NCBI GenBank assembly: GCA_951406725.2
Contig: OX597829.1
Coordinates: 50,406,001-50,470,000, forward strand
Direction of reading: 5' to 3'
Length of the DNA: 64,000 bases
From: Octopus vulgaris
Lineage: Eukaryota
Every line of letters starts with the position of its first letter. The first letter of the stretch is position 1. This document shows, piece by piece, positions 5,105 to 55,590 of the stretch. The translations under genes were made by a program, and so were the position numbers. The notes under the pieces were generated by a model. It was not told the origin of the DNA, did not search any database, and saw only the letters and a program-made list of their open reading frames with translations.

Positions 5105-5400
5105 AAGGTAGATAGATAGATAGATAGATAGACAGAATTTAAGACAGATAATACATACATACATACATATATATATGCATAAACATGAATATATTTTGTG
5201 TTGGTGTATGAGTGTGTGTGTATCATGTATGGCATGCATGTATATATGTACAGGGGTATGTATATGTATGTATATACATACATTCATACATATACATATG
5301 TACATACATACACACGCATATATATATATATATATCATCATCATCATCGTCATGTATATATATATATACACACACACGTACATAGATGTGTGTGCGTGTG
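3570..5400. repeat. Microsatellite field: (AT)n, (AC)n, (GATA)n
   Basis: Direct reading, e.g. (GATA)n at ~4878-5131. Confidence 0.95.
4315..4797 (-). mobile_element. RTE LINE 3' fragment with (GAT)n tail
   Basis: CATCATCGTTTAACGTCCG...GCATGGGTTGGAC...GGATGCCTTTCC matches the 3' end of the RTE element at 58681. Internal GGTGCTTTTTAYGTGCCACCGGCAC repeats. Confidence 0.8.
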
Positions 5401-40120: not shown

Positions 40121-40248
40121 TTGACCCTTTGGTACCAACCCTCAGTAGACTGTCTCTGATTTTATGATACAAACTTCTCGTTTGAGGTGATTTAAATTAA
40201 ATTCTTCCATCAAGATTAATTGAAACAAAGGTAATGTATTTCATTATA

Positions 40249-42533
40249 TTGGGTTGTCCGGAAAGTTTGTGCCGATTTGTAAAGGAAAGAAAAAGGTCAA
40301 AAAATAATTACCATTACATTTTTAATCAACCAAATATGAACCATTTTGTTGCACAATGCGTCTCCATCTTTCCTTTAACTTAAAAATACCCACTTCCCAG
40401 AATTGAGGTGGTTTCATTGCAAAGAATTCATCAAGGTATCTTTTTACGTCATCCAAGGAATTGAAATATTTACCATTAAGACTATTCTGCAGAGACCTGA
40501 ATAAGTGGAAATCCGAAGGAGCAATATATGGTGAATATGGAGGGTGGAGTAACACATCCCAGCTGAGCTGCAGCAACTTTTGTCTAGTTCCCAAAACATC
40601 AAGTGCCGAAATGAACTTTCTTATCTTCCATTTTAAAGGGTTACAGAATTAACACAGGTTATAGGAACATAAACCTTCTTCCACGAAAAGATAGCTTAAA
40701 CTGTGCTCTATGATTTTTTATTCACCATATGGTTTTACACAGAGGGGACACTACAACACATTGGGGACACAAAACATCAAAAAAATAATCGTATAAGATG
40801 AGAAAAAGAGTGAAAATGAGAGATGAAAGTGATGTTAATTGCCCCATCGGTCAACATCACTTACTTGTCCTTTTTCCTATTTCACTGCGAAAACCACAAA
40901 GTCCCCAAATTTTATCTCATATATTTTTTCGAGTTTGTCCCTCTTTTCCTGTTCCAACCTTCCCCTTATTAACATATATACATTTCCAAGTTCATCTTTA
41001 AGTTCCTCCACCTGATTTTTCAACAATACTACTTCCATTCCCTCATGCTAGCTATCTGGTATTTCTACTTTTTCCCAGTCCTTTAACCTTTCATATAAGT
41101 ACTCACTGTCTATCATTCCAATACAGGACGGGAGTTTTGTGTTATCATTTGTGTGCATGTTTTCTATTTTCTTGTTGGTGGGGAGTGGGTGGGTTTGGTT
41201 GTCTGCAGGGACAAGGTGGGCCACAAAGGGTGTGGATGGTCCTGGCGTGGGTTGGGGTTCAGAGTCACTTGCCTTTTTTCTTTTTTACTGCATTCTTATC
41301 CCCGTGGATTCCCATTCTTTTTCATCTTCCTTCACTTGTCTCTCTTCCTCTGCTGTTTCCTTCTGGGGTGTTTCTGTTTCTTTCATTGTTTCTTTATTTA
41401 TTTCCTTCACTGTTGTAGTGCAGTTCGCTCTTATGTGACCTTTCAGGCCGCATTTAAGGCATCGAGGGGCTCTGCCCTCCACCCTTACTCTCATTGTTAT
41501 GTCATTTGTTGTAATAGTTTCCAATAAATTTTCTAAAGTTTCCATTTCCACTTGGATGCTCATTTCCAGCATCTCTCCTCTTTATCCCTCTTCCTCGGTT
41601 ATAATCTCTTGGACTATATCTACTTTCCCTCATTTCCAAAGATAACCGCTACTACTATCAATTCTGCGTCGACATCCGGTGGTACTCCATCCACCCTAAT
41701 TCTTGTGGTTCTTCTCCCCAGATAAGAGGGTAAAAGTGTTACCTTATCTGTTTTGACTGTCCTTGCTGCCATTCAACTTCCCGTTTCTTCGTTTTTGAAC
41801 TGCACTACCAACTGTGCCATACTTGTTTCCTCTTGCGAGGAAGATTATCTTTTCCTCCATTGTTTTGAGGGTGTCCGCCACCGTTTCCATACTTATTAAA
41901 TCCACTCTTTTCTTCTCATTAGCAAATACTCGATACGTAATTTTTTTCCTTTCCATCCTGTTCTTTTTTCTGTGTGACCGTAATAGCTCCACATCTCCGT
42001 TTACCATTTTAATCATTTCTTGGCAGTCCGGTAACTTTGCCAGATTCATTTCTCTTTTCGTTGGTTTCGTCGCTCCAATATATGTTCTTCCTTGTAAGAC
42101 CATGTCTAGTCTTCCTACCGCCTCTACTAACTCTTCTTTGGAAGACGATAAGTCCGACTCACTCGTAAACATTCTTCTTTCCGTTTCCTCTATTCCTCCT
42201 CTAAAAGAGGGGAAACCCATTTTTCTTCGTCTGTCTCAAACAGACAGACAAAATTCAACAGTCAAAATCAATAAAAAGTAAGAAACCTTATAACAAAAAC
42301 CATCCTTTCAGAATTACCAACAGATCCAAACGCATAACTTCATTTTCACAAGAACAACATAACATCTTGACTGTACAAGCTCCAAAAAATATGTGCTCAG
42401 CAATCCAACGATAGCTTAAATTGTGCTCTAAATGGAAGTATAGTCAAATCCTATTTTATGGACTCAACCATGTTCTAAAATAAGTCAAAAGGTAAGCTAC
42501 TATAAATTGGCACGAACTTTCTGGACAACCCAA
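40249..42533 (-). mobile_element. Internally deleted mariner transposon carrying a nested insertion
   Basis: TA-flanked TIRs TTGGGTTGTCCGGAAAGTTTGTGCCGATTT / AAATTGGCACGAACTTTCTGGACAACCCAA. Transposase start MEDKKVHF (ATG ~40631) is joined directly to the C-terminus LLHPPYSPYIAPSDFHLFRSLQNSL (40322-40594). Confidence 0.92.
40711..42409 (-). mobile_element. ORF1-only L1/Tx1-type retroelement with 21-bp TSD
   Basis: TSD GATAGCTTAAA(C/T)TGTGCTCTA at 40690-40710 and 42410-42430. Disrupted ORF1 (pieces 41744-42220 and 41285-41572) with the CCHC knuckle CLKCGLKGHIRANC. AATAAA tail at ~40720. Confidence 0.85.
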
Positions 42534-43032
42534 TATATTATAACAAAAGAGTTGAAGTGTTCTAAATTTAAACCTTCATCCATCTAAATTCCACGTTAAT
42601 TAATATTTCAAACACCAGCTTAATAATAACTAAATTATTTTACTAAATTCTTCATTATTTTCAAGACGAATCATTGAAACAAAAGCAGTGTATTTCAACA
42701 GAATCATGGTAATTATTAAAAGGGTTTAAAGTGATATAAATTATAATCCTCCTTCAAAATTTCATGATAATTTATATTCCAAAAGACCGGGTAAATAATA
42801 GCAAAGATATTTTACTAAATTCTTTGATATTAACTGGAACAAAGGCAATGTATTTTTACAGAAATATAATAACAAAAAGGTTAAACAGTCTATAAACATA
42901 CACAGTGAATAAATGGCAAGAAAGTAAGAAATGCAATGTTTTAACTCAAAACTGTGTGATACCAAATTATTTAAAATATTTAAAATGTTGAAATATGAAT
43001 CCTTTGCTTAGAAAATATAACAAAAAAAGAAT

Positions 43033-43226
43033 TGATAAAGTGGTGGTATGTTGTCAACTTAATGTGACAGTCCCATGAAAGGGAAGAATACTACTGCTAT
43101 TTAGCCCTAGGGCTAAATAGCAGTAGCATTCTCTCCTTTCATGGGACTGTCACATTGAGTTGACAACATACCACAACTTTATCATGTTACTACTGTATAA
43201 ATTTCTCTGAGAGGTTTAGAAATGTA
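43033..43226. repeat. Spacerless palindrome of the 12029 PLE-like family
   Basis: Arms of ~75 bp centred on CCCTAGGG (43105-43112). Confidence 0.88.
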
Positions 43227-44617: not shown

Positions 44618-44990
44618 AGGTGCAGGCATGGCCACGTGATAAGAAATTTGCTTCCAACCACATAGTTCTGGGCTCAACCCACTGCATGACATCATGGCAA
44701 GCATCCTTGGGTCAACTAAGGTGTTACAAGTGCTTCTGGTACACGGAAGCTGAAAGAAGCTCTTCTATGTGTGTGTGTGTGTATGTCTCTTTCCATGACC
44801 ACTGCTTGACAAGTGATATTGGTTTCCTAATGCCCCTGTAACTTAGCAGTTCAGCAAAAGGAAACTAATAAGATAAATACAAACTTCAAAAAAAAAGAAG
44901 TACTGAGGATGATTCATTTGACAAAAACCCTTCAAGGTGGTGCCCCCGCATGGCCACAGTCCAATGACTGAAACAAGTAGAAGATAAAAG
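44618..44990 (+). mobile_element. Diverged SINE family A copy that seeds the satellite
   Basis: Head, (TG)n and body are collinear with 21407. Its tail is the first satellite unit. Confidence 0.85.
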
Positions 44991-47900
44991 ATATACTGGG
45001 ATTGATTTGTTCAACTAAAACCATTCAAGTTGGTGCCCCAGCATGGCCACAGTCCGCTGACTGAAACAAGTAAAAGATAAAAGATATACTGGGATTGATT
45101 TGTTCAACTAAAGCCCTTCAAGGTGGTGCCCCAGCATGGCCACAGTCCAATGACTGGAACAAGAAAAAGATAAAAGATATACTGGGATTGATTTGTTCAA
45201 CTAAAACCCTTCAAGGTGGTGCCCCAGCATGGCCACAGTCCAATGACTGAAACAAGTAAAAGATAAAAGATATACTGGGATTGATTTGTTCAACTAAAAC
45301 CCTTCAAGGTGGTGCCCCAGCATGGCCACAGTCCAGTGACTGAAACAAGTAAATGATAAAAGATATACTGGGATTGATTTGTCCAACTAAAACCCTTCAA
45401 GGTGGTGCCCCAGCATGGCCACAGTCCAATGACTGAAACAAGAAAAAGATAAAAGATATACTGGGATTGATTTGTTCAACTAAAACCCTTCAAGGTGGTG
45501 CTCCAGCATGGCCACAGTCCAATGAGTGAAACAAGTAAAAGATAAAAGATATACTGGGATTGATTTGTTCAACTAAAGCCCTTCAAGGTGGTGCCCCAGC
45601 ATGGCCAAAGTCCAATGACTGATACAAGAAGAAGATAAAAGATATACTGGGATTGATTTGTTCAACTAGAACCCTTCAAGGTGGTGCCCCAGCATGGCCA
45701 CAGTCCAATGAGTGAAACAAGTAAAAGATAAAAGATATACTGGGATTGATTTGTTCAACTAAAACCCTTCAAGGTGGTGCCCCAGCATGGCCACAGTCCA
45801 ATGACTGAAACAAGAAAAAGATAAAAGATATACTGGGATTGATTTGTTCAACTAAAACCCTTCAAGGTGGTGCCCCAGCATGGCCACAGTGCAATGACTG
45901 AAACAAGAAAAAGATAAAAGATATACTGGGATTGATTTGTTCAACTAAAACCCTTCAAGGTGGTGCTCCAGCATGGCCACAGTCCAATGACTGAAACAAG
46001 TAAAAGATAAAAGATATACTGGGATTGATTTGTTCAACTAAAACCCTTCAAGGTGGTGCCCCAGCATGGCCACAGTCCAATGACTGAAACAAGTAAAAGA
46101 TAAAAGATATACTGGGATTGATTTGTTCAACTAAAACCCTTCAAGGTGGTGCTCCAGCATGGCCACAGTCCAATGACTGAAACAAGTAAAAGATAAAAGA
46201 TATACTGGGATTGATTTGTTCAACTAAAACCCTTCAAGGTGGTGCCCCAGCATGGCCACAGTCCAATGACTGAAACAAGAAAAAGATAAAAGATATACTG
46301 GGATTGATTTGTTCAAATAAAACCCTTCAAGGTGGTGCCCCAGCATGGCCACAGTCCAATGACTGAAACAAGTAAAAGATAAAAGATATACTGGGATTGA
46401 TTTGTTCAACTAAAACCCTTCAAGGTGGTGCCCCAGCATGGCCACAGTCCAATGACTGAAACAAGTAAAAGATAAAAGATATACTGGGATTGACTTGTTC
46501 AACTAAAACCCTTCAAGGTGGTGCCCCAGCATGGCCACAGTCCAATGACTGAAACAAGTAAAAGATAAAAGATATACTGGGATTGATTTGTTCAACTAAA
46601 ACCCTTCAAGGTGGTGCCCCAGCATGGCCACAGTCCAATGACTGAAACAAGTAAAAGATAAAAGATATACTGGGATTGATTTGTTCAACTAAAACCCTTC
46701 AAGGTGGTGCCCCAGCATGGCCACAGTCCAATGACTGAAACAAGAAAAAGATAAAAGATATACTGGGATTGATTTGTTCAACTAAAACCCTTCAAGGTGG
46801 TGCTCCAGCATGGCCACAGTCCAATGAGTGAAACAAGTAAAAGATAAAAGATATACTGGGATTGATTTGTTCAACTAAAGCCCTTCAAGGTGGTGACCCA
46901 GCATGGCCAAAGTCCAATGACTGAAACAAGAAAAAGATAAAAGATATACTGGGATTGATTTGTTCAACTAGAACCCTTCAAGGTGGTGCCCCAGCATGGC
47001 CACAGTCCAATGAGTGAAACAAGTAAAAGATAAAAGATATACTGGGATTGATTTGTTCAACTAAAACCCTTCAAGGTGGTGCCCCAGCATGGCCACAGTC
47101 CAATGACTGAAACAAGAAAAAGATAAAAGATATACTGGGATTGATTTTTTCAACTAAAACCCTTCAAGGTGGTGCCCCAGCATGGCCACAGTCCAATGAC
47201 TGAAACAAGAAAAAGATAAAAGATATACTGGGATTGATTTGTCCAACTAAAACCCTTCAAGGTGGTGCCCCAGCATGGCCACAGTCCAATGACTGAAACA
47301 AGTAAAACATAAAAGATATACTGGGATTGATTTGTCCAACTAAAACCCTTCAAGGTGGTGCTCCAGCATGGCCACAGTCCAATGACTGAAACAAGTAAAA
47401 GATAAAAGATATACTGGGATTGATTTGTTCAACTAAAACCCTTCAAGGTGGTGCCCCAGCATGGCCACAGTCCAATGACTGAAACAAGTAAAAGATAAAA
47501 GATATACTGGGATTGATTTGTTCAACTAAAACCCTTCAAGGTGGTGCTCCAGCATGGCCACAGTCCAATGACTGAAACAAGTAAAAGATAAAAGATATAC
47601 TGGGATTGATTTGTTCAACTAAAACCCTTCAAGGTGGTGCCCCAGCATGGCCACAGTCCAATGACTGAAACAAGAAAAAGATAAAAGATATACTGGGATT
47701 GATTTGTTCAACTAAAACCCTTCAAGGTGGTGCCCCAGCATGGCCACAGTCCAATGACTGAAACAAGTAAAAGATAAAAGATATACTGGGATTGATTTGT
47801 TCAACTAAAACCCTTCAAGGTGGTGCCCCAGCATGGCCACAGTCCAATGACTGAAACAAGTAAAAGATAAAAGATATACTGGGGTTGATTTGTTCAACTA

Positions 47901-50900
47901 AAACCCTTCAAGGTGGTGCCCCAGCATGGCCACAGTCCAATGACTGAAACAAGTAAAAGATAAAAGATATACTGGGATTGATTTGTTCAACTAAAACCCT
48001 TCAAGGTGGTGCCCCAGCATGGCCACAGTCCAATGACTGAAACAAGAAAAAGATAAAAGATATACTGGGATTGATTTGTTCAACTAAAACCCTTCAAGGT
48101 GGTGCCCCAGCATGGCCACAGTCCAATGACTGAAACAAGTAAAAGATAAAAGATATACAGGGATTGATTTGTTCAACTAAAACCCTTCAAGGTGGTGCCC
48201 CAGCATGGCCACAGTCCAATGACTGAAACAAGTAAAAGATAAAAGATATACTGGGATTGATTTGTTCAACTAAAACCCTTCAAGGTGGTGCCCCAGCATG
48301 GCCACAGTCCAATGACTGAAACAAGTAAAAGATAAAAGATATACTGGGATTGATTTGTTCAACTAAAACCCTTCAAGGTGGTGCCCCAGCATGGCCACAG
48401 TCCAATGACTGAAACAAGTAAAAGATAAAAGATATACTGGGATTGATTTGTTCAACTAAAACCCTTCAAGGTGGTGCCCCAGCATGGCCACAGTCCAATG
48501 ACTGAAACAAGTAAAAGATAAAAGATATACTGGGATTGATTTGTTCAACTAAAACCATTCAAGGTGGTGCCCCAGCATGGCCACAGTCCAATGACTGAAA
48601 CAAGTAAAAGATAAAAGATATACTGGGGTTGATTTGTTCAACTAAAACCCTTCAAGGTGGTGCCCCAGCATGGCCACAGTCCAATGACTGAAACAAGTAA
48701 AAGATAAAAGATATACTGGGATTGATTTGTTCAACTAAAACCCTTCAAGGTGGTGCCCCAGCATGGCCACAGTCCAATGACTGAAACAAGAAAAAGATAA
48801 AAGATATACTGGGATTGATTTGTTCAACTAAAACCCTTCAAGGTGGTGCCCCAGCATGGCCACAGTCCAATGACTGAAACAAGAAAAAGATAAAAGATAT
48901 ACTGGGATTGATTTGTCCAACTAAAACCCTTCAAGGTGGTGCCCCAGCATGGCCACAGTCCAATGACTGAAACAAGTAAAAGATAAAAGATATACTGGGA
49001 TTGATTTGTCCAACTAAAACCCTTCAAGGTGGTGCTCCAGCATGGCCACAGTCCAATGACTGAAACAAGTAAAAGATAAAAGATATACTGGGATTGATTT
49101 GTTCAACTAAAACCCTTCAAGGTGGTGCCCCAGCATGGCCACAGTCCAATGACTGAAACAAGTAAAAGATAAAAGATATACTGGGATTGATTTGTTCAAC
49201 TAAAACCCTTCAAGGTGGTGCCCCAGCATGGCCACAGTCCAATGAGTGAAACAAGTAAAAGATAAAAGATATACTGGGATTGATTTGTTCAACTCAAACC
49301 CTTCAAGGTGGTGCCCCAGCATGGCCAGAGTCCAATGACTGAAACAAGAAAAAGATAAAAGATATACTGGGATTGATTTGTTCAACTAAAACCCTTCAAG
49401 GTGGTGCTCCAGCATGGCCACAGTCCAATGACTGAAACAAGTAAAAGATAAAAGATATACTGGGATTGATTTGTTCAACTAAAACCCTTCAAGGTGGTGC
49501 CCCAGCATGGCCACAGTCCAATGACTGAAACAAGTAAAAGATAAAAGATATACTGGGATTGATTTGTTCAACTAAAACCCTTCAAGGTGGTGCCCCAGCA
49601 TGGCCACAGTCCAATGACTGAAACAAGTAAAAGATAAAAGATATACTGGGATTGATTTGTTCAACTAAAACCCTTCAAGGTGGTGCCCCAGCATGGCACA
49701 GTCCAATGACTGAAACAAGTAAAAGATAAAAGATATACTGGGATTGATTTGTTCAACTAAAACCCTTCAAGGTGGTGCCCCAGCATGGCCACAGTCCAAT
49801 GACTGAAACAAGTAAAAGATAAAAGATATACTGGGATTGATTTGTTCAACTAAAACCCTTCAAGGTGGTGCCCAGCATGGCCACAGTCCAATGACTGAAA
49901 CAAGTAAAAGATAAAAGATATACTGGGATTGATTTGTTCAACTAAAACCCTTCAAGGTGGTGCCCCAGCATGGCCACAGTCCAATGACTGAAACAAGTAA
50001 AAGATAAAAGATATACTGGGATTGATTTGTTCAACTAAAACCCTTCAAGGTGGTGCCCCAGCATGGCCACAGTCCAATGACTGAAACAAGTAAAAGATAA
50101 AAGATATACTGGGATTGATTTGTTCAACTAAAACCCTTCAAGGTGGTGCCCCAGCATGGCCACAGTCCAATGACTGAAACAAGTAAAAGATAAAAGATAT
50201 ACTGGGATTGATTTGTTCAACTAAAACCCTTCAAGGTGGTGCCCCAGCATGGCCAGAGTCCAATGACTGAAACAAGTAAAAGATAAAAGATATACTGGGA
50301 TTGATTTGTTCAACTAAAACCCTTCAAGGTGGTGCCCCAGCATGGCCACAGAGTCCAATGACTGAAACAAGTAAAAGATAAAAGATATACTGGGATTGAT
50401 TTGTTCAACTAAAACCCTTCAAATGGTGCCCCCAGCATGGCCACAGTCCAATGACTGAAACAAGTAAAAGATAAAAGATATACTGGGATTGATTTGTTCA
50501 ACTAAAACCCTTCAAGGTGGTGCCCCAGCATGGCCACAGTCCAATGACTGAAACAAGTAAAAGATAAAAGATATACTGGGATTGATTTGTTCAACTAAAA
50601 CCCTTCAAGGTGGTGCCCCAGCATGGCCAGAGTCCAATGACTGAAACAAGTAAAAGATAAAAGATATACTGGGATTGATTTGTTCAACTAAAACCCTTCA
50701 AGGTGGTGCTCCAGCATGGCCACAGTCCAATGACTGAAACAAGTAAAAGATAAAAGATATACTGGGATTGATTTGTTCAACTAAAACCCTTCAAGGTGGT
50801 GCCCCAGCATGGCCACAGTCCAATGACTGAAACAAACAAAAGATAAAAGATATACTGGGATTGATTTGTTCAACTAAAACCCTTCAAGGTGGTGCCCCAG

Positions 50901-53900
50901 CATGGCCACAGTCCAATGACTGAAACAAGTAAAAGATAAAAGATATACTGGGATTGATTTGTTCAACTAAAACCCTTCAAGCTGGTGCCCCAGCATGGCC
51001 ACAGTCCTATGAGTGAAACAACTAAAAGATAAAAGATATACTGGGATTGATTTGTTCAACTAAAACCCTTCAAGGTGGCGCCCCAGCATGGCCACAGTCC
51101 AATGACTGAAACAAGTAAAAGATATAAGATATACTGGGATTGATTTGTCAACTAAAACCCTTCAAGGTGGTGCCCCAGCATGGCCACAGTCCAATGACTG
51201 AAACAAGTAAAAGATAAAAGATATACTGGGATTGATTTGTTCAACTAAAACCCTTCAAGGTGGTGCCCCAGCATGGCCACAGTCCAATGACTGAAACAAG
51301 TAAAAGATAAAAGATATACTGGGATTGATTTGTTCAACTAAAACCCTTCAAGGTGGTGCCCCAGCATGGCCACAGTCCAATGAGTGAAACAAGTAAAAGA
51401 TAAAAGATATACTGGGATTGATTTGTTCAACTAAAACCCTTCAAGGTGGTGCCCCAGCATGGCCACAGTCCAATGACTGAAACAAGTAAAAGATAAAAGA
51501 TATACTGGGATTGATTTGTTCAACTAAAACCCTTCAAGGTGGTGCCCCAGCATGGCCACAGTCCAATGACTGAAACAAGTAAAAGATAAAAGATATACTG
51601 GGATTGATTTGTTCAATTAAAATCCTTCAAGGTGGTGCCCCAGCATGGCCACAGTCCAATGAGTGAAACAAGTAAAAGATAAAATATATAATGGGATTGA
51701 TTTGTTCAACTAAAACCCTTCAAGGTGGTGCCCCAGCATGGCCACAGTCCAATGAGTGAAACAAGTAAAAGATAAAAGATATACTGGGATTGATTTGTTC
51801 AACTAAAACCCTTCAAGGTGGTGCCCCAGCATGGCCACAGTCCAATGACTGAAACAAGTAAAAGATAAAAGATATACTGGGATTGATTTGTTCAACTAAA
51901 ACCCTTCAAGGTGGTGCCCCAGCATGGCCACAGTCCAATGACTGAAACAAGTAAAAGATAAAAGATATACTGGGATTGATTTGTTCAACTAAAACCATTC
52001 AAGGTGGTGTCCCAGCATGGCCACAGTCCAATGACTGAAACAAGTAAAAGATAAAAGATATACTGGGGTTGATTTGTTCAACTAAAACCCTTCAAGGTGG
52101 TGCTCCAGCATGGCCACAGTCCAATGACTGAAACAAGTAAAAGATAAAAGATATACTGGGATTGATTTGTTCAACTAAAACCCTTCAAGGTGGTGCCCCA
52201 GCTTGGCCACAGTCCAATGACTGAAACAAGAAAAAGATAAAAGATATACTGGGATTGATTTGTTCAACTAAAACCCTTCAAGGTGGTGCCCCAGCATGGC
52301 CACAGTCCAATTACTGAAACAAGTAAAAGATAAAAGATATACTGGGATTGATTTGTCCAACTAAAACCCTTCAAGGTGGTGCCCCAGCATGGCCACAGTC
52401 CAATGACTGAAACAAGTAAAAGATAAAAGATATACTGTGATTGATTTGTCCAACTAAAACCCTTCAAGGTGGTGCTCCAGCATGGCCACAGTCCAATGAC
52501 TGAAACAAGTAAAAGATAAAAGATATACTGGGATTGATTTGTTCAACTAAAACCCTTCAAGGTGGTGCCCCAGCATGGCCACAGTCCAATGACTGAAACA
52601 AGTAAAAGATAAAAGATATACTGGGATTGATTTGTTCAACTAAAACCCTTCAAGGTGGTGCCCCAGCATGGCCACAGTCCAATGACTGAAACAAGAAAAG
52701 ATAAAAGATATACTGGGATTGATTTGTTCAACTAAAACCCTTCAAGGTGGTGCCCCAGCATGGCCACAGTCCAATGAGTGAAACAAGTAAAAGATAAAAG
52801 ATATACTGGGATTGATTTGTTCAACTCCAAACCCTTCAAGGTGGTGCCCCAGCATGGCCAGAGTCCAATGACTGAAACAAGAAAAAGATAAAAGATATAC
52901 TGGGATTGATTTGTTCAACTAAAACCCTTTCAAGGTGGTGCTCCAGCATGGCCACAGTCCAATGACTGAAACAAGAAAAAGATAAAAGATATACTGGGAT
53001 TGATTTGTTCAACTAAAACCCTTCAAGGTGGTGCCCCAGCATGGCCACAGTCCAATGAGTGAAACAAGTAAAAGATAAAAGATATACTGGGATTGATTTG
53101 TTCATCTAAAACCCTTCAAGGTGGTGCCCCAGCATGGCCACAGTCCAATGACTGAAACAAGTAAAAGATAAAAGATATACTGGGATTGATTTGTTCAACT
53201 AAAACCCTTCAAGGTGGTGCCCCAGCATGGCCACAGTCCAATGACTGAAACAATTAAAAGATAAAAGATATACTGGGATTGATTTGTTCAACTAAAACCC
53301 TTCAAGGTGGTGCCCCAGCATGGCCACAGTCCAATGACTGAAACAAGTAAAAGATAAAAGATATACTGGGATTGATTTGTTCCACTAAAACCCTTCAAGG
53401 TGGTGCTCCAGTATCGCCAGAGTCCAATGACTGAAAGAAGTAAAAGATAAAAGATATACTGGGATTGATTTGTTCAACTAAAACCCTTCAAATGGTGCCC
53501 CAGCATGGCCACAGTCCAATGACTGAAACAAACAAAAGATAAAAGATATACTGGGATTGATTTGTTCAACTAAAACCCTTCAAGGTGGTGCCCCAGCATG
53601 GCCACAGTCCAATGACTGAAACAAGTAAAAGATAAAAGATATACTGGGATTGATTTGTTCAACTAAAACCCTTCAAGGTGGTGCCCCAGCATGGCCACAG
53701 TCCAATGACTGAAACAAGTAAAAGATAAAAGATATACTGGGATTGATTTGTTCAACTAAAACCCTTCAAGGTGGTGCCCCAGCATGGCCAGAGTCCAATG
53801 ACTGAAACAAGTAAAAGATAAAAGATATACTGGGATTGATTTGTTCCACTAAAACCCTTCAAGGTGGTGCTCCAGTATCGCCAGAGTCCAATGACTGAAA

Positions 53901-55590
53901 CAAGTAAAAGATAAAAGATATACTGGGATTGATTTGTTCAACTAAAACCCTTCAAGGTGGTGCCCCAGCATGGCCACAGTCCAATGACTGAAACAAACAA
54001 AAGATAAAAGATATACTGGGATTGATTTGTTCAACTAAAACCCTTCAAGGTGGTGCCCCAGCATGGCCACAGTCCAATGACTGAAACAAGTAAAAGATAA
54101 AAGATATACTTGGATTGATTTGTTCAACTAAAACCCTTCAAGGTGGTGCCCCAGCATGGCCAGAGTCCAATGACTGAAACAAGTAAAAGATAAAAGATAT
54201 ACTGGGATTGATTTGTTCCACTAAAACCCTTCAAGGTGGTGCTCCAGCATCGCCAGAGTCCAATGACTGAAAGAAGTAAAAGATAAAAGATATACTGGGA
54301 TTGATTTGTTCAACTAAAACCCTTCAAATGGTGCCCCAGCATGGCCACAGTCCAATGACTGAAACAAACAAAAGATAAAAGATATACTGGGATTGATTTG
54401 TTCAACTAAAACCCTTCAAGGTGGTGCCCCAGCATGGCCACAGTCCAATGACTGAAACAAGTAAAAGATAAAAGATATACTGGGATTGATTTGTTCAACT
54501 AAAACCCTTCAAGGTGGTGCCCCAGCATGGCCACAGTCCTATGAGTGAAACAACTAAAAGATAAAAGATATACTGGGATTGATTTGTTCAACTAAAACCC
54601 TTCAAGGTGGTGCCCCAGCATGGCCACAGTCCAATGACTGAAACAAGTAAAAGATAAAAGATATACAGGGATTGATTTGTTCAACTAAAACCCTTCAAGG
54701 TGGTGCCCCAGCATGGCCACAGTCCAATGAGTGAAACAAGTAAAAGATAAAAGATATACTGGGATTGATTTGTTCAACTAAAACCCTTCAAGGTGGTGCC
54801 CCAGCATGGCCACAGTCCAATGACTGAAACAAGTAAAAGATAAAAGATATACTGGGATTGATTTGTTCAACTAAAACCCTTCAAGGTGGTGCCCCAGCAT
54901 GGCCACAGTCCAATGACTGAAACAAGTAAAAGATATAAGATATACTGGGATTGATTTGTTCAACTAAAACCCTTCAAGGTGGTGCCCCAGCATGGCCACA
55001 GTCCAATGACTGAAACAAGTAAAAGATAAAAGATATACTGGGATTGATTTGTTCAACTAAAACCCTTCAAGGTGGTGCCCCAGCATGGCCACAGTCCAAT
55101 GACTGAAACAAGTAAAAGATAAAAGATATACTGGGATTGATTTGTTCAACTAAAACCCTTCAAGGTGGTGCCCCAGCATGGCCACAGTCCAATGAGTGAA
55201 ACAAGTAAAAGATAAAAGATATACTGGGATTGATTTGTTCAAGTAAAACCCTTCAAGGTGGTGCCCCAGCATGGCCACAGTCCAATGACTGAAACAAGTA
55301 AAAGATAAAAGATATACTGGGATTGATTTGTTCAACTAAAACCCTTCAAGGTGGTGCCCCAGCATGGCCACAGTCCAATGACTGAAACAAGTAAAAGATA
55401 AAAGATATACTGGGATTGATTTGTTCAATTAAAATCCTTCAAGGTGGTGCCCCAGCATGGCCACAGTCCAATGACTGAAACAAGTAAAAGATAAAAGATA
55501 TACTGGGATTGATTTGTTCAACTAAAACCCTTCAAGGTGGTGCCCCAGCATGGCCACAGTCCAATGACTGAAACAAGTAAATGATAAAAG
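44900..55590. repeat. 93-bp satellite, ~115 copies
   Basis: Unit TACTGGGATTGATTTGTTCAACTAAAACCCTTCAAGGTGGTGCCCCAGCATGGCCACAGTCCAATGACTGAAACAAGTAAAAGATAAAAGATA. Period 93 measured at 45201/45294. Confidence 0.98.

Follow-up and report, generated by a model that had tools for sequence, protein, structure and literature searches.

An ORF1-only non-LTR retroelement family of Octopus vulgaris recurs at a mariner site and probably depends on two-ORF L1/Tx1-type relatives

How does an element that encodes ORF1 and no ORF2 come to lie at full length in a genome, and is it one member of a family or the product of a single accident? These questions are raised by a locus of Octopus vulgaris within the window, a stretch of 64,000 nucleotides (contig OX597829.1, positions 50,406,001 to 50,470,000), in which all coordinates below are given unless another locus is named. 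A sequence-only reading had proposed a complete, HAL1-like element of ~1.7 kb, flanked by a 21-bp target-site duplication (TSD) and mobilized in trans by an L1/Tx1 partner. We consider it very likely that the insert represents a full-length but decayed member of an ORF1-only non-LTR family, that this family borrows the endonuclease and reverse transcriptase (RT) of a two-ORF L1/Tx1-type relative, and that the copy sits at a recurrently used mariner site that may be the transcription start of the mariner.

The insert spans 1699 bp of the minus strand (40711 to 42409), and the parts described beforehand could each be located there. Its TSD of 21 bp (5' copy at 42410 to 42430, 3' copy at 40690 to 40710, one mismatch between them) has a score of 18, whereas only 9 of 506 mismatched-flank control pairs reach 10 or more. 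Behind a T-rich 5' leader of 189 nt (42221 to 42409) comes a broken ORF1 of ~450 amino acids (40877 to 42220, ATG at 42220), composed of two predicted RRM/ferredoxin-like domains (41470 to 41985, with approximate borders mapped from the model of a relative, L006), a CX2CX4HX4C zinc knuckle (41420 to 41461), a charged and proline-rich linker (41150 to 41419) and a C-terminal domain of ~90 amino acids (40880 to 41149) that can be aligned among ORF1-only lineages and matches no family. The 3' UTR and tail (40711 to 40876) contain AATAAA at 40722 to 40717 and end in ~50 nt similar to the tails of two-ORF families. The few hundred base pairs of UTR assumed at first proved to be mostly coding: ORF1 of this copy aligns to the nearly open frame of L006 over 451 amino acids, down to 40880, so that the frame runs to 40877 and leaves a 3' UTR of only ~165 nt.

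The copy is full length but dead. "Complete" is an apt word for its extent and not for its ORF1, which has mutually compensating +1 and -1 frameshifts near 41812 and 41628 and premature stops at 41775, 41584, 41287 and 41050. The stretch from 40720 to 41280, where remnants of an ORF2 had been considered, is the C-terminal part of ORF1, and a tblastn search of the insert with two intact ORF2 proteins gave no remnant (best E of 0.78), in agreement with the absence of endonuclease and RT motifs reported before. No LTRs were found around the insert. Marks of RNA editing were likewise absent from this copy, with no A>G excess (18 A>G, rate 0.035, versus 8 T>C, rate 0.029).

Family membership was anticipated correctly. 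A nucleotide search of the same genome with the window element, in which 40 of 861 candidates were scored, returned at least 49 matches, among them at least six further near-full copies (1600 nt or more, ~1.65 kb) with 76 to 83% identity. The 3' end is included in 33 of the 49 matches and the 5' end in 10, a bias expected from target-primed reverse transcription. TSDs scoring 10 or more were present at 12 of 23 loci, window included, against the control rate given above; a clear TSD was absent at the other 11 loci tested. The duplications are mostly 13 to 21 bp long, adjoin the tail and have no clear consensus among the duplicated sequences. A protein search with ORF1 yielded 12,058 candidates, of which 147 were scored and 30 loci fetched for their layout. 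Not one of the 30 has a same-strand endonuclease after ORF1, and in 27 the tail lies 700 to 750 nt past the knuckle (22 by pattern, 5 read by eye); in the remaining three, the element is interrupted or the tail lies at a greater distance. Diverged ORF1-only lineages, with ORF1 identities of 44 to 48%, share this layout. Together these copies show the window insert to be a member of a repeated ORF1-only family with a fixed ORF1-to-tail arrangement. Like other non-autonomous LINEs with an ORF1, the family has ORF1 without ORF2 and has been amplified as a unit, with 5' truncation, a tail and a variable TSD.

To place the protein, we compared ORF1 sequences and models. In a tree, eight ORF1-only rows group together on one branch (support of 100/99), separate from four two-ORF rows. 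One row, H014, is taken as ORF1-only by assumption, its 3' end having been replaced by another copy. Lineage V, the ninth ORF1-only lineage, stands on a long unplaced branch. It was seen at L092 (2908 to 4176), is just 29 to 32% identical to the other lineages and possibly represents a second independent loss of ORF2. Nei-Gojobori dN/dS between ORF1-only lineages or subfamilies is 0.09 to 0.26. The closest pair of copies from the window element's own lineage (W), both dead, gives 0.48, and the comparison of W with lineage Y is saturated; rows with the window's own 5' piece (69 to 110 codons) were misaligned and are excluded. Judged by these substitution ratios, the data show purifying selection on ORF1 after the loss of ORF2.

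An alignment-based fold of ORF1 from 85 rows reached a pLDDT of 92.9 and places two RRM/ferredoxin-like domains ahead of the knuckle; a single-sequence fold (pLDDT 39.5) was set aside. Foldseek with the model returned tandem-RRM proteins in the top rows (best E of 3.5e-5, 39 matches at E <= 0.001), and the first domain superimposes on the RRM of La with a Z of 9.8 and an rmsd of 2.5 over 82 aligned residues. ORF1p is therefore predicted to be an RNA-binding protein with two RRMs and a zinc knuckle. A Pfam scan of ORF1 recovered the knuckle only, under the curated cut-off, and no Transposase_22 match, and an ORF1 profile run against the sequences of solved structures gave knuckle-only matches. 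A profile of the C-terminal domain matched the ORF1 C termini of two-ORF elements with a probability of 0.2% and that of lineage V with 2.7%; the alignments are shallow, and these values do not imply a separate origin. Over both RRMs and the knuckle, ORF1 of the ORF1-only elements is homologous to ORF1 of two-ORF LINEs of the same genome (E of 2e-45), with 33 to 35% identity between W and those sampled. According to the accessible part of PMC5203782, an ORF1 with RRM and CCHC is type I and is tied to Tx1 in nonmammalian animals, and that of mammalian L1 is type II (Transposase_22, with a coiled coil, a single RRM and a CTD).

Two simpler origins have to be weighed against this evidence. For the idea that the window insert arose by a single internal deletion within a normal two-ORF LINE, no support was found, although two-ORF relatives do exist. 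It is refuted by the recurrence of the layout in six other near-full copies and in lineages with 44 to 48% ORF1 identity, and by the lack of an ORF2 remnant in the insert, and we give it virtually no credence. One might also suspect retrocopies derived from a host RNA-binding gene, an ORF1 gene that was domesticated, or the gag remnant of an LTR element, because the closest named protein found is annotated as an uncharacterized product of Octopus sinensis, and because the knuckle alone matches retroviral nucleocapsids. Those nucleocapsid matches cover just ~20 residues, however, there are no LTRs, the homology to LINE ORF1 extends over both RRMs, and young relatives form dispersed arrays with LINE tails, so that such an origin is extremely improbable.

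Where, then, might the missing functions come from? The sequence-only reading postulated an L1/Tx1-type partner, and suitable elements are present. One of them, the two-ORF element L070, is 5.2 kb long and encodes an endonuclease and an RT besides a homologous ORF1; it lies in another mariner copy, flanked by the same 21-bp duplication, and is the only two-ORF element found at the mariner site. Nucleotides 150 to 204 of the ORF1-only element match the leader of L070 (82%, E of 5.7e-7), and the window copy, L070 and the second unit of L017 have similar heads at the mariner site. Intact two-ORF families also exist in the genome, with ORF2 proteins of 1131 to 1132 amino acids that combine APE, RT and zf-RVT domains and have human L1 ORF2p as the closest solved structure (E of 7e-65). 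These elements have an APE endonuclease, an L1-group RT, a C-terminal zinc motif and a type I ORF1 (RRM plus CCHC), and the last ~50 nt of the two-ORF families resemble the tails of ORF1-only units. For the window 3' end, the match to two-ORF family A scores 57 against a shuffled maximum of 39, and that to a second two-ORF element is marginal (42 against 41). The last 260 nt of L070 score 35 against a shuffled maximum of 54, and family B likewise does not rise above the shuffles. The 3' end is thus shared with family A and the leader with L070; for the other three partners, the resemblance at the 3' end is at most marginal. None of the sampled two-ORF elements has an ORF1 that falls within the W branch. 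An L1/Tx1-type partner for the family is well supported by these sequence comparisons; the label "Tx1-type" would follow from domain layout, ORF1 type and site preference, and the shared ends and sites point to mobilization in trans. Searches for homologs and protein clusters of the partner yielded no element named Tx1.

The surroundings of the insert, which had gone unnoticed in the sequence-only reading, add to this picture. The host is a mariner remnant of 573 bp on the minus strand, with terminal inverted repeats of 37 bp on the promoter side (42501 to 42537) and the far side (40245 to 40281), TA flanks and an internally deleted remnant of a mariner-type transposase (40322 to 40631, start at 40631), the C-terminal part of which matches Mos1 (E of 6e-21). 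The TSD begins at mariner nucleotide 108, 79 bp before the transposase ATG, and the insert lies in the direction of the transposase. Other ORF1-only insertions occupy this site in different mariner copies (L003, L015, L017 and L031). The junction base, at the 3' TSD copy, is identical in five insertions, namely, the window copy, L003, L017, L031 and L070, and L015 is at the same site. A search by junction pattern gave nine hits, comprising three already known, L031 (a 170-bp ORF1-only 3' end), the 3' end of L070 and four others. L032, L037, L038 and L039 were dropped as candidates for occupied mariner sites, as the element is absent upstream. In L003, positions 1 to 1500, the 5' end of the copy has been replaced by an opposite-strand RT-coding element, Penelope-like by eye.

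Among W loci with a readable 3' flank, the mariner site accounts for 4 of 28 in the first set, window included, and 0 of 8 further ones, 4 of 36 in total (~11%). Finding 3 of 28 other loci at one site has a P of 2e-9 even if 50,000 sites are assumed. Kojima (2015) calls an element target specific if more than 20% of flanks lie in one repeat; the mariner share falls under that cut-off though it is strongly enriched. The mariner site is a hot spot and not a case of strict targeting.

W copies also recur at two further shared sites. Three of 28 W loci (L008, L014 and L025) are inserted at one base, on the opposite strand, inside the endonuclease-coding part of another non-LTR retroelement, a region that, from its motifs, we take to encode a restriction-like endonuclease. 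L004 and L012 are only a few bases apart in a repeat common to both, L004 with TATAAAAA 32 bp upstream. A very common short repeat (L004 3' flank; L094, ~5240 to 5290) has a 3' tail nearly the same as those of ORF1-only and two-ORF elements, and is therefore a likely SINE mobilized by the same enzymes. This short repeat also serves as a target, at L022, L044 and L050. In the 3' flanks of L095, L097, L101 and L002, two-ORF elements and one W copy are found within ~40 bp in one further repeat, a piece of which forms the spacer between units of the array L071-L072. Another ORF1-only subfamily (L049, L051, L052 and L054) is found at a single site of a second Helitron-like repeat, where the duplication measures 14 to 16 bp. 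Within the window itself, a tandem array of 10.7 kb (44924 to 55590; 114.7 copies of a 93-bp unit, 97% match) is built of a unit resembling the 3' part of a common short repeat present in many flanks. The window also contains a minisatellite (687 to 2204; 58 copies of a 26-bp unit) and a near-perfect palindrome of 152 bp (43033 to 43184; two 76-nt arms without a spacer), a repeat that occurs in L007 too and is possibly a foldback or MITE-like element.

Recurrence at one mariner base could have come about in ways other than repeated landing by a single endonuclease. A single insertion might have been copied along with its mariner by the DNA transposon or by segmental duplication, in keeping with the fact that all site-sharing copies are in the same mariner family. 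The flanks of the six occupied sites are indeed 90 to 95% identical to each other. Against this, the inserts are far more diverged, the window insert being 85% identical to L003, 67% to L017 and 90% to the 5'-truncated L015. They vary in their 5' ends and in length (170 bp, 360 bp, 1.7 kb, a tandem pair, and 5.2 kb with ORF2), which points to separate insertions, and L017 consists of a pair of units separated by a copy of the target. There are also 1609 exact empty sites, and copying with the mariner is highly improbable. More to be reckoned with, if short of an even chance, is the reading that the family is as described, that its helper is not of the L070 lineage and that the mariner site is a generic hot spot, such as any open core promoter, for several L1/Tx1-type enzymes instead of a sequence recognized by one endonuclease. 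The additional shared sites of W copies, the duplicated sequences without clear consensus, the tail of family A as best fit and the TATA-like motifs described below all speak for it; the five insertions at an identical junction base and the similar heads of the window copy, L070 and the second L017 unit speak against it.

Among the younger relatives, one lineage has an open ORF1 of 472 amino acids and head-to-tail arrays of ~1.73-kb units, and 95 of the 147 scored ORF1 hits (from 12,058 candidates) lie in 32 multiunit clusters. An RT hit, among 146 scored, falls within 25 kb of 19 of 84 clusters, versus 0.22 expected, and is downstream in 15 of the 19. Eight mixed arrays, chosen from these pairs of ORF1 cluster and RT hit, were mapped; they have two-ORF family A at the 3' end and are located at one site of a Helitron-like repeat. 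The same 12-bp Helitron target is joined exactly by 67 family-A tails and 33 tails of another type. A tail-to-head joint is present in a contig of a public run, which may come from the assembly's own sample. No RNA data set was listed as containing the young unit, a result that speaks neither for nor against its expression. In the five-unit array L079, the same 17-bp target sequence occurs between units and at the 3' end. Some junctions of L071, L080, L084 and L087 have 30 to 70 bp of upstream Helitron-like flank directly behind the tail, an arrangement compatible either with transcription from a start within the flank or with long duplications.

What the target sites have in common may be a promoter. 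The mariner site has CATAAAAT at -30, a TATA-like motif (42453 to 42460, minus strand, 30 bp before the duplication) with a putative core-promoter role. Targets were scored with a home-made matrix, a score of 5 or more at -24 to -36 counting as a pass, and the threshold was chosen on the first set. In that set, 4 of 12 independent targets pass versus 5.4% of control windows (P of 0.003, with the threshold taken from the same set). A second set, scored with the rule left unchanged, yields 3 passes among 7 independent targets (3 among 10 rows) versus 13.5%, and the last set 1 among 3. Overall, 8 of 22 independent targets have a TATA-like motif 27 to 34 bp upstream, and the majority do not. These counts are suggestive of TATA-type core promoters as targets. 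That the mariner site in particular acts as a core promoter, one that would drive transcription of the copies inserted there, is a tentative idea, somewhat more doubtful than probable.

A mechanism can be proposed along these lines. The element RNA would be coated by its own ORF1p, and the ORF2p of a helper would bind the shared 3' tail, nick the target and copy the RNA by target-primed reverse transcription, with the site set by the helper's endonuclease. ORF1p made in cis would be the reason that the frame is kept. More speculatively, copies may take over the promoter on which they land. In its broadest form, the proposal would be that octopus holds an old, diversified, Tx1-derived ORF1-only clade, a fourth independent origin beside HAL1, HeT-A and Ag-Sponge, with helpers that aim at core promoters of other transposons, here that of the mariner transposase, insert in sense orientation at the transcription start, take over the promoter and disable the host element; taken as a whole, we regard this as unlikely.

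Comparison with known systems shows likenesses on several sides. The portion of PMC5786205 available lists ORF1-present nonautonomous LINEs from three clades only, Jockey (HeT-A), L1 (HAL1) and CR1 (Ag-Sponge). HAL1, a mammalian L1 derivative according to the part consulted of PMC5753468, resembles the octopus element in being nonautonomous, encoding ORF1p only, keeping 5' and 3' ends, stemming from the L1 group and leaving 5'-truncated copies with TSDs (excerpts of PMC5753468 and PMC5786205). The two differ in ORF1, which in octopus is type I, with RRM and CCHC, and in HAL1 type II, with Transposase_22; in the octopus partner, a site-preferring invertebrate L1/Tx1-type LINE; and in the recurrence of octopus copies at fixed bases in other transposons and in head-to-tail arrays. 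The octopus element works in the manner of HAL1 or HeT-A and is not a HAL1 in terms of strict membership, which fails on the absence of Transposase_22 and the presence of two RRM-like domains and a CCHC knuckle instead. In Drosophila, ORF1-only lineages persist in telomere arrays (10.1101/2025.06.09.658640, in the text at hand). HeT-A and the telomeric Jockey elements likewise comprise persistent ORF1-only lineages that spawn new ORF1-only families, need the ORF2 of a relative and form mixed head-to-tail arrays (10.1101/2025.06.09.658640 and PMC5786205, as far as available). HeT-A, however, belongs to the Jockey clade and is telomeric, whereas the octopus partner is of the L1 group and the arrays examined are inside dispersed repeats. 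Ag-Sponge of Anopheles is an ORF1-present nonautonomous LINE in an invertebrate as well; it is of the CR1 clade, and the available part of PMC5786205 makes no mention of site preference.

The closest parallel for the site comes from crocodilians, in which Tx1-Mar and SINEU share sites in a mariner (PMC4494074, available sections). Together with Tx1L in Tx1D of Xenopus, that system resembles ours in having a LINE and a dependent element at fixed mariner sites, tandem copies that sandwich the TSD, and independence demonstrated by 5'-truncated copies (same sections). SINEU is a noncoding SINE with an snRNA-derived head, whereas the dependent element of octopus encodes ORF1; and the octopus site, unlike that of Tx1-Mar and SINEU, precedes the transposase start by 79 bp, with the insert in the direction of the transposase. 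Mariner use amounts to ~11% of loci in octopus versus 13 to 90% for SINEU in the sections of PMC4494074 consulted. For Octopus vulgaris, PMC13282606 describes 13 recently active L1-Tx1 families, and the accessible part of that paper does not mention ORF1-only families. We found no description of a Tx1-derived ORF1-only family in the literature as far as it was accessible; Repbase and the library deposited with PMC13282606 may hold such families. Each ingredient of the octopus system is known, and the combination was not found in print.

ORF1-only LINEs pose the open question of why ORF1 is kept when SINEs move without it. In the octopus genome, several ORF1-only lineages, of which some are young and intact, coexist with intact helpers whose target site can be read, and this allows direct tests of the need for cis-made ORF1p, of ORF2p capture and of what determines the site. 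Should the sites be core promoters, these elements would exemplify a LINE strategy of landing at the transcription starts of other transposons. Such a strategy, if true, would bear on tools for site-specific gene insertion and on how repeat hot spots have built up in the octopus genome.
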